Below the pieces are notes generated by a model. The model was not told where the DNA came from. It searched no databases and saw nothing but the letters and a program-made list of their open reading frames with translations. Of a stretch of 64,000 nt of DNA, positions 18,499 through 18,572 are shown one piece after another. Made by a program: the position numbers and the translations under genes. The stretch's first letter is position 1, and each line of letters begins with the position of its first letter. The stretch is from an uncultured bacterium (GTDB lineage Bacteria > Margulisbacteria > WOR-1 > XYC2-FULL-46-14), in the NCBI GenBank assembly GCA_964421245.1, contig CAYQVW010000001.1, positions 242,712 to 306,711 of the forward strand, written 5' to 3'.

Positions 18499-18572
18499 CA
18501 TGCAAGTTTCATCAACCTCACTACGATAGTATATGTAAGGACGTAGGGCAGAACATTGTTCTGCACGTACCA
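18499..18572 (+). promoter_or_regulatory. Upstream bipartite motif CATGCAAGT-N25-ATGTAAG followed by a 17-bp perfect palindrome, GCAGAACATTGTTCTGC (18548-18564)
   Basis: The bipartite motif recurs at 21435-21475 with identical spacing. The palindrome plus the following CNCGTAC recurs at 52403-52428 upstream of gap. RBS AAAGGAGG at 18580-18587. Confidence 0.55.

Follow-up and report, generated by a model that had tools for sequence, protein, structure and literature searches.

The 64,000-nucleotide stretch of DNA analyzed here (the window) contains, ahead of a basic 217-aa orphan gene, two adjacent noncoding elements: a bipartite, promoter-like motif (motif 1) and, directly downstream of it, a palindrome (motif 2) that recurs in the leader of gap-pgk. 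A preliminary description had interpreted motif 1 as a regulatory signature tying together just two orphan genes, encoding this 217-aa protein and a 1294-aa protein, and motif 2 as a repressor operator. We consider it likely that the palindrome is a GTAG-footed repetitive extragenic palindrome (REP), of the “canonical long” type of TnpA_REP/REP-associated tyrosine transposase (RAYT) subclass 2.4, rather than a private operator, and that motif 1 belongs to a class of promoters resembling those read by sigma-28. Both features are real, yet they belong to already known kinds, REPs and alternative-sigma promoters. For Saganbacteria/WOR-1, a barely studied lineage, they provide two usable annotations, a REP family and a second promoter class.

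The window, part of a 349-kb metagenome contig, has a G+C content of 36.7% and encodes LptC/LptA-like proteins, and its source is therefore predicted to be an uncultured diderm bacterium; the nearest relatives of its GAPDH carry the labels Candidatus Saganbacteria, WOR-1, or Margulisiibacteriota. Extensions of ~10 kb on either side brought the DNA covered to ~84 kb of this genome. The relatives compared were one locus with an ortholog of the 1294-aa gene (L013) and three gap loci (L014, L015, and L018). Strain variants of the window (L001–L012) are identical in all three leaders and uninformative.

A Palindrome Shared with Distant Genomes

The core CAGAACAWTGTTCTG occurs in the window only at 18549–18563 and 52407–52421, with 0.25 matches expected at ≤2 mismatches. 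Around it, the two copies share a block of 28–29 nt, GT(A/T)GGG(-/A)CAGAACA(T/A)TGTTCTGC(A/C)CGTAC, which is longer than previously described; both are oriented alike relative to the downstream gene, end 9–13 nt 5' of an AAGGAGG ribosome-binding site, and fold as hairpins (-12 to -14 kcal/mol; z-scores of -3.3 to -4.3). Within the block, GCAGAACATTGTTCTGC is a perfect 17-nt palindrome with 8-nt arms and a central T. The perfect palindrome and its match in the gap leader stand as first described, except that the quoted end (18571/18572) lies 1–2 bases too far, the terminal CGTAC ending at 18570. The foot is GTAG in the copy at 18543, and the bottom of the stem is paired as GGG...CCC in the gap copy and only partially, as GGG...CAC, in the 217-aa copy. 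Searches of Rfam, at gathering thresholds for the whole window and at permissive thresholds for both leaders, returned nothing meaningful, and a full-text literature search for the motif sequence found unrelated primers only. We rejected a CRISPR repeat, as there are no arrays, and a terminator function in the window, as no T-run follows 3' of either copy.

One scan per collection with the pattern CAGAACANTGTTCTGNNCGTAC, which has 19 specified bases, returned 41 metagenome and 37 genome loci, neither collection including the source genome, with a chance estimate of a few matches per collection. Across these loci (L021–L098), the ~29-nt element GTA(G/C)GG(A/G)CAGAACAnTGTTCTG(T/C)CCGTAC is found at 65 distinct sites. 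According to the record titles, those in the genome loci belong to Patescibacteria (Falkowbacteria, Roizmanbacteria, and Parcubacteria), with seven sites in one metagenome-assembled genome (MAG), to candidate division WOR-1 (three sites), Candidatus Saganbacteria, Omnitrophota, and Cloacimonadota, and to an FCB-group MAG (six sites), Gammaproteobacteria MAGs, one Bacillota MAG, and one archaeal MAG; the G+C of the element-bearing loci ranges from 0.32 to 0.55. The family consensus is GTA(G/C)GGACAGAACAnTGTTCTGTCCGTAC, with GGGACAG...CTGTCCC at the base of the stem. Variants include perfect palindromes (GTACGG...CCGTAC), double-foot forms (GTAGGG...CCCTAC; e.g., at +485 in L077), and subfamilies with compensatory replacement of the inner stem, such as GTAGGGACAGGGCAATGCCCTGTCCGTAC in L098. 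The genes 3' of the element are unrelated: hisS, dnaJ, infC, hisF, thiC, ddl, pyrG, gyrB, and genes encoding an ABC-F ATPase and the S subunit of a restriction-modification system. Flanking A-runs and T-runs give the element the look of a bidirectional terminator in several Patescibacteria loci. Only 38% of the copies lie inside long open frames, versus 72% of positions drawn at random from these loci.

In an all-versus-all comparison of the open reading frames (ORFs) of these loci, the neighbor family that recurs most widely is an IS200-like HUH/Y1 transposase, which matches Pfam PF01797 and is present in six loci, the next family being present in four. Its top NCBIfam match is NF047646, “REP-associated tyrosine transposase,” scoring below the model cut-off since the domain is split. 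The element occurs in frame inside the transposase genes, between HIHGII and YIxxNP, where it is read as VGTEQCSVPT; RAYT-like genes with the same REP are present in L028, L050, L058/L077, L074, and L098. A REP in frame inside the transposase gene is a published hallmark of TnpA_REP subclass 2.4, or RAYT group 4, and “canonical long” REPs are characterized by a GT[AG]G foot, a long stem with three G-C pairs at its base, and a tiny loop (Quentin 2018, PMC6006769). GTAG REPs form compensatory subfamilies, families mostly of single units, and families common to distant organisms (Di Nocera 2013, PMC3733652). The element described here resembles them as a 28–29-nt palindrome with a 5' GT[AG]G foot, bottom G-C pairs, and a 1–3-nt loop that is mostly extragenic, occurs in single, tandem, perfect-palindrome, and double-foot variants as well as compensatory subfamilies, and, with A/T runs beside some copies, takes a terminator-like form.

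According to the published proposal, an HUH/Y1 tyrosine transposase would spread such elements as single-stranded DNA hairpins. One copy would have entered the gap-pgk leader before this genome and its sister species diverged; the other lies in the 217-aa leader, within an insertion of ~4.5 kb where pheT ends. The near-identity of the sequence in several candidate phyla differs from what the literature describes for GTAG REPs, where some families are found in distant taxa and most are lineage-specific. As the consensus is nearly unchanged in the candidate phyla radiation (CPR), Omnitrophota, and other uncultured groups, it bears on how REPs and RAYTs spread between phyla.

Several observations weigh against assigning the window copies to this class. 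As short palindromic units (20–40 bp) that form stem-loops, REPs of this type would be expected at many extragenic sites of one genome, together with a cognate HUH/Y1 (RAYT) transposase gene that contains the REP or is flanked by it. Their density is low: the ~84 kb of this genome hold two copies of the family plus one of another family, with exact-core copies elsewhere numbering three to seven per genome, and the ~10-kb extensions contain no further REP of the palindrome's family. The foot of the gap copy is GTTG (GTAG in its L014 ortholog). A tblastn search with the RAYT-like proteins detected no transposase in the window, its extensions, or the loci of the relatives. The location is also atypical, as Saganbacterial copies are found in 5' leaders and not mostly downstream of genes: all six Saganbacteria/WOR-1 copies in the scans are sense-oriented and lie 21–47 nt 5' of a start codon, and among 47 oriented unique copies overall, the 5'-proximal ones are sense in nine cases and antisense in none. 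Such a bias is not an obvious expectation for an element that is purely selfish, and could result from co-option or from strand-specific insertion.

The loci with the element show further variation in how REPs are arranged. RAYT-like genes span 85–693 in L050, 437–1183 in L058, 1448–2068 in L074, and 1502–2050 in L098, the last having a REP subfamily of its own, GGGCAATGCCC, within the gene as well as 5' of it. In-gene REPs occur in MAGs titled Gammaproteobacteria and in metagenome contigs with this REP. In the Bacillota MAG (L035/L090, ~4690–4751), at least five tandem copies of a 9-nt repeat of the foot, GTAAGGACA, precede the REP. Short tandem repeats resembling ATAAAGTTC surround the REPs of the FCB-group MAG (L044, L055, L067, L078, and L086).

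The Proposed Operator Reading of the Palindrome

The preliminary description had proposed that motif 2 is a repressor operator. In such a model, a dimeric factor would bind GAAC-N3-GTTC 3' of both promoters and co-repress gap-pgk and the 217-aa gene. A perfect 17-bp palindrome that at two loci lies 3' of the promoter and 5' of the ribosome-binding site, in the same orientation and with similar spacing to the ribosome-binding site, does have the look of an operator, and its recurrence within the window exceeds the chance expectation given above. We nevertheless regard this interpretation as highly improbable. The same 29-nt element at 65 sites in several phyla, before unrelated genes, in terminator-like contexts, and within transposase genes, weighs against a private binding site, and no transcription-factor gene lies beside either copy; Pfam scans of 30 window proteins detected neither a transcription factor nor a sigma factor.

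Phylogenetic footprinting of the gap leader points in the same direction. In the sister species represented by L014, with a gap protein 94% identical, GTAGGGGACAGCTCGCGAGCTGTCCGTAC occupies the same place after a TTGATG-17-TATAAT promoter. This leader keeps the foot, the stem base, and the hairpin, yet AACAATGTT is replaced by CTCGCGAG, and GAAC-N3-GTTC is thus not conserved. The conserved ACAG and CTG(T) blocks are separated by 8 instead of 9 nt, a shift ill-suited to a rigid dimer site. Among the more distant relatives, one with a 91%-identical gap protein has an unrelated leader hairpin, and L018 (84% identical) has none. If the palindrome is a REP, as we think likely, a mobile repeat is no longer to be read as a regulator of glycolysis.

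Two known operators with some likeness to the palindrome were considered. The LexA Cheo box is CGAAC-N4-GTTCG, and the CggR operator of gapA operons consists of tandem direct repeats, with cggR, a member of the SorC family, upstream of gap; the palindromic GAAC/GTTC half-sites and the position before gap, respectively, recall these. The initial statement that motif 2 fits neither holds for both. A LexA/Cheo-box operator was rejected based on the N3 spacing, the absence of the core from the L014 leader, and the genes downstream, which are gap and an orphan gene and include no SOS genes. A CggR operator was rejected because there is a single palindrome and because a Pfam-less 288-aa ORF and an LptC-like gene, with no cggR/SorC-type gene, lie upstream of gap.

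Possible Co-option as a 5' Stem-Loop

The gap promoter ends at 52393, placing the predicted transcription start at ~52400, the first base of the REP, while the 217-aa transcript is predicted from sigma-28 geometry to start at ~18537, six bases 5' of its REP. For the 1294-aa transcript, the predicted start is at ~21473. Because both copies begin within ~7 nt of a predicted start, they would be transcribed as stable 5' stem-loops, which may affect mRNA stability or translation. A co-opted role of this kind is plausible. Hairpins at the 5' terminus stabilize some mRNAs, as in the E. coli ompA leader and the 5' stabilizers of Bacillus, and the gap and 217-aa leaders share with these a stable hairpin at most a few nucleotides from the predicted 5' end, an A-rich spacer, and a strong ribosome-binding site; the 1294-aa leader does so with a different hairpin. 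As putative stabilizers, they differ in that the hairpin is a mobile repeat and not a locus-specific structure.

A stronger version of this idea is that the REP has been domesticated and is now a functional RNA stem-loop in Saganbacterial leaders, serving in 5' stabilization, translation tuning, or protein binding, in which case a shared function would explain why the gap and 217-aa copies are nearly identical. To this we assign a minor but appreciable likelihood. The position of both window copies at predicted starts, the sense orientation of all Saganbacteria/WOR-1 copies in 5' leaders, and the overall absence of antisense 5'-proximal copies are consistent with it, as are the survival of the gap-leader hairpin through a species split with compensatory change and the presence in the 1294-aa leader, at the equivalent position, of a conserved though unrelated hairpin, GCCCCTCGGGGC, which was correctly noted before. 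GT pairing in REP stems has moreover suggested that many act as RNA elements (PMC3733652). Against domestication, the element also occurs in other phyla 5' of promoters, at 3' ends, and within hairpins resembling terminators; the orientation bias could come from strand-specific transposition of single-stranded DNA; L018 lacks a leader hairpin; and no Rfam family matches. The consistent Saganbacterial placement in 5' leaders nonetheless offers a cheap, testable case of possible REP domestication.

An extension of this idea, which we find decidedly doubtful, is that Saganbacteria use a horizontally shared REP as a standard 5'-leader module governing mRNA stability or translation, alongside a sigma-28-like regulon composed wholly of lineage-specific orphans, including the 1294-aa membrane protein and the basic 217-aa protein. 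Such an orphan regulon would have a parallel in Chlamydia, whose sigma-28 late regulon is non-flagellar.

A Probable Second Promoter Class

Motif 1, CATGCAAGT-N25-ATGTAAG, is present at 18499–18539 and 21435–21475, as first described, with 0 mismatches at both; at ≤3 mismatches, the window contains three matches versus 0.68 expected. The third, weak match (51809–51849) was kept out of the class because it is without CGATA and lies antisense within an ORF. The pattern TG(A/C)AAnT-N15/16-CGATA recovers six window sites versus 0.18–0.24 expected, five of them directly 5' of ORFs and on the correct strand, and leads to the fuller consensus TG(A/C)AAnT-N15/16-CGATA(n)TA(y)AT. Class sites are also found 5' of a Pfam-less 190-aa gene just outside the window (L101), the one class promoter added by the extensions, 5' of orthologous genes in L013, and 5' of two Pfam-less genes in L018.

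These observations bear on the initial reading in two ways. Motif 1 does overlap the -35/-10 area and resembles a promoter of non-sigma-70 type, and the other promoters are indeed textbook sigma-70 (TTGACA-17-TATAAT at 19421 and TTGATA-17-TATAAT at 52365). It is not, however, a signature tying together just two orphan genes, since the class also precedes those encoding the tetratricopeptide-repeat (TPR) 734-aa protein and the 123-aa, 139-aa, and 190-aa proteins, as well as genes of the relatives. The region upstream of the 217-aa gene (up217) matches the divergent TPR promoter at 30/51 positions and the region upstream of the 1294-aa gene (up1294) at 32/51. As up217 is equally close to both, the resemblance between up217 and up1294 amounts to the class consensus, with ATGTAAG as the predicted discriminator and start-site region.

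Conservation also supports the class. The up1294 promoter is conserved before the 1294-aa ortholog in L013. The identity to this relative is 84% for the up1294 leader and 93% for the 60-nt spacer between the 139-aa gene and mutS, compared to 52–70% at fourfold-degenerate sites, and conservation of the class promoters above the neutral rate is therefore indicated by the alignments.

The up217/up1294 likeness could alternatively be the trace of a segmental duplication of the 5' region, comprising promoter and first codons, instead of a functional signature. Weak similarity does run into the first codons (MGGTPIVIGN versus MEGGSFAVGN; 18595–18625 and 21519–21550), where it is not statistically significant, and scattered DNA identity extends to about +75 in the alignment. 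The equal similarity of up217 to the TPR promoter, a spacer identity of only 7/16, the occurrence of the same boxes at unrelated genes in three genomes, and their conservation above the neutral rate make this very unlikely.

An alternative sigma factor would read the bipartite motif, with the best match being to sigma-28/FliA-type promoters, and the class would drive at least six lineage-specific, Pfam-less genes in the ~84 kb (217-aa, TPR 734-aa, 123-aa, 1294-aa, 139-aa, and 190-aa). The sigma-28 promoter has been described as (-36)TCTAAAG(-30)/(-15)GCCGATAA(-8) with an N14 gap (PMC12784957). A promoter of this type would be expected to have a -35 of TCTAAAG/TAAA and starts 7–8 nt past the -10, with a fliA-type sigma gene in the same genome. 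The CGATA core of the -10 8-mer is invariant at all class sites, and the class 8-mers agree with GCCGATAA at five to eight of eight positions, one site in L018 being perfect. The TGAAA subclass in addition has an A-rich -35 with an AAA core and a 14-nt gap, and the class is set apart from the sigma-70 promoters of the same genome. It differs from sigma-28 (FliA/SigD/WhiG) promoters in that its -35 is TGAAAy or TGCAAs and not TCTAAAG, and in that its targets encode lineage-specific proteins without Pfam families, flagellar genes being absent from the DNA covered; searching the literature for flagella in Saganbacteria yielded nothing useful.

Some features fit the sigma-28 assignment poorly. The gap of the TGCAA subclass (217-aa, TPR, and 1294-aa) is 15 nt, one above the consensus, and its -35 retains only AA(G). 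One of the six class matches is antisense inside a gene, the Pfam scans revealed no candidate for the cognate sigma factor, and the -35 part (TGAAAC/TGCAAC) looks as much like that of an extracytoplasmic function (ECF) sigma factor as like that of sigma-28. Recognition by an ECF (group 4) sigma is accordingly the main alternative, though one we consider unlikely. ECF promoters have AAC in the -35 and CGT(C/A) as the -10, and the consensus of the Bacillus SigW/SigM type is TGAAAC-N16-CGTA; TGAAAC(T)/TGCAAC(T) with ~16-nt spacing to a CG-initiated -10 resembles the latter, and the targets are envelope-like or unknown proteins, including the TPR protein and the large membrane protein. Yet the -10 is invariably CGATA (CGA) and never CGT(C/A), the -35 has AAC at only two of the five ORF-proximal window sites (plus some sites in relatives), AAG and AAT being common, and no sigma/anti-sigma gene pair is adjacent. 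The sigma-28-like class remains the preferred assignment, and it marks a set of orphan genes as putatively co-regulated, which provides a starting point for determining the function of their proteins and the cognate sigma.

Three sites in the window deserve separate mention. The 139-aa gene (25806–25841, minus strand) starts only ~13 nt past its CGATAA box, which predicts an mRNA with little or no leader. The class match at 38700–38727 is either a chance match or an antisense promoter. At 51836–51849, antisense in the 288-aa ORF, a 14-nt exact match to the -10/start region of up1294, ATAATACATGTAAG, has TATAAT ahead of it and lacks CGATA.

Features of the window

Table 1. Coordinates of probable REPs, predicted promoters, and associated features in the window
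Feature	Position	Strand	Sequence and remarks
Divergent class promoter, 734-aa TPR gene	18452–18479	-	TGCAACT-N16-CGATACTATAT
Class promoter, 217-aa orphan gene	18499–18539	+	TGCAAGT at 18501–18507 (-35-like); TACGATAG at 18522–18529 (-10-like)
Predicted start, 217-aa mRNA	near A18537	+	inside ATGTAAG; from sigma-28 geometry (PMC12784957)
REP copy 1	18543–18570	+	GTAGGGCAGAACATTGTTCTGCACGTAC; GTAG foot, long stem; ~+7 to +34 of predicted 217-aa mRNA
Basic 217-aa orphan gene	18595–19248	+	ribosome-binding site AAGGAGG at 18580–18586
Intrinsic-terminator-like hairpin closing the 217-aa transcription unit	19286–19313	+	
Class promoter, 123-aa ORF	20788–20814	+	TGAAATT-N15-CGATA, 8-mer CCCGATAA at 20808; just past remnant pheT stop
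Class promoter, 1294-aa gene	21435–21475	+	TGCAAGT-N16-CGATAATACATGTAAG; kept at L013 1375–1413
GC hairpin, 1294-aa leader	21477–21488	+	GCCCCTCGGGGC; ~+5 of predicted mRNA; stem kept in L013, with larger loop
Class promoter, 139-aa gene	25815–25841	-	TGAAACT-N15-CGATAA; kept in L013
Class-promoter match without downstream gene	38700–38727	-	TGAAATT-N16-CGATA; antisense inside YceG/MltG-like gene
Double-foot GTAG REP, second family	50162–50189	.	GTAGGGTCAAGTCGCGACTTGACCCTAC; between convergent genes; kept in L014 (8686–8714)
gap-pgk promoter, sigma-70-type	52365–52393	+	TTGATA-17-TATAAT, 11/12 matches; kept in L014 and L015
REP copy 2	52400–52428	+	GTTGGGACAGAACAATGTTCTGCCCGTAC; ~+1 to +29 of predicted gap mRNA

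Lineage-Specific Insertions

In L013, pheT is directly followed by the neighbors of the large gene, and the 217-aa gene of the window thus lies in an insertion specific to its lineage, in which the host's own promoter class and REP family are used. In the window, ~4.5 kb (16233 to ~20735) separates pheT from the same neighbors and contains the TPR 734-aa gene, the 217-aa gene, and an AAA_14/DUF4143 ATPase gene. A remnant of the old pheT 3' end (..DDLDVELRK*) with the downstream class promoter lies at ~20735–20814, and the site orthologous to this promoter is at 402–428 in L013. No integrase was seen in the insertion.

The 217-aa protein has no homolog among 5.8 billion proteins and belongs to no Pfam family, while the 1294-aa protein has a single homolog, 65% identical, on L013. 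Similarity between the 217-aa protein and the N-terminus of a 325-aa protein of L018 (MGEIVIS...GKINN) is not significant (E = 0.46); the gene for the latter sits behind a TGCAATT-N15-TGATA box.

A Pfam-less 288-aa ORF (51449–52315, minus strand) between the LptC-like gene and gap has no counterpart in L014 and L015, in which the LptC-like gene directly borders the gap promoter. By this comparison it is a second lineage-specific insertion, ending just 5' of the gap -35 box.

Other Palindromes and Repeats in the Window

The GTAG and CTAC feet of the double-foot REP at 50162–50189 overlap the stop codons of both convergent genes. A perfect 22-nt GTAG-headed palindrome, GTAGAGACATCGCATGCGATGTCTC, is found inside a SpoU methylase gene (12982–13006); it is probably not an insertion, because the Pfam domain match is uninterrupted there. 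The 189-nt spacer 5' of dnaB contains an imperfect inverted/direct-repeat structure of ~140 nt (31931–32072) with units of the GGAGATC.GG and CCGGATA types, and similar short units (tatccgggatgtccggg) flank the REPs in L077.

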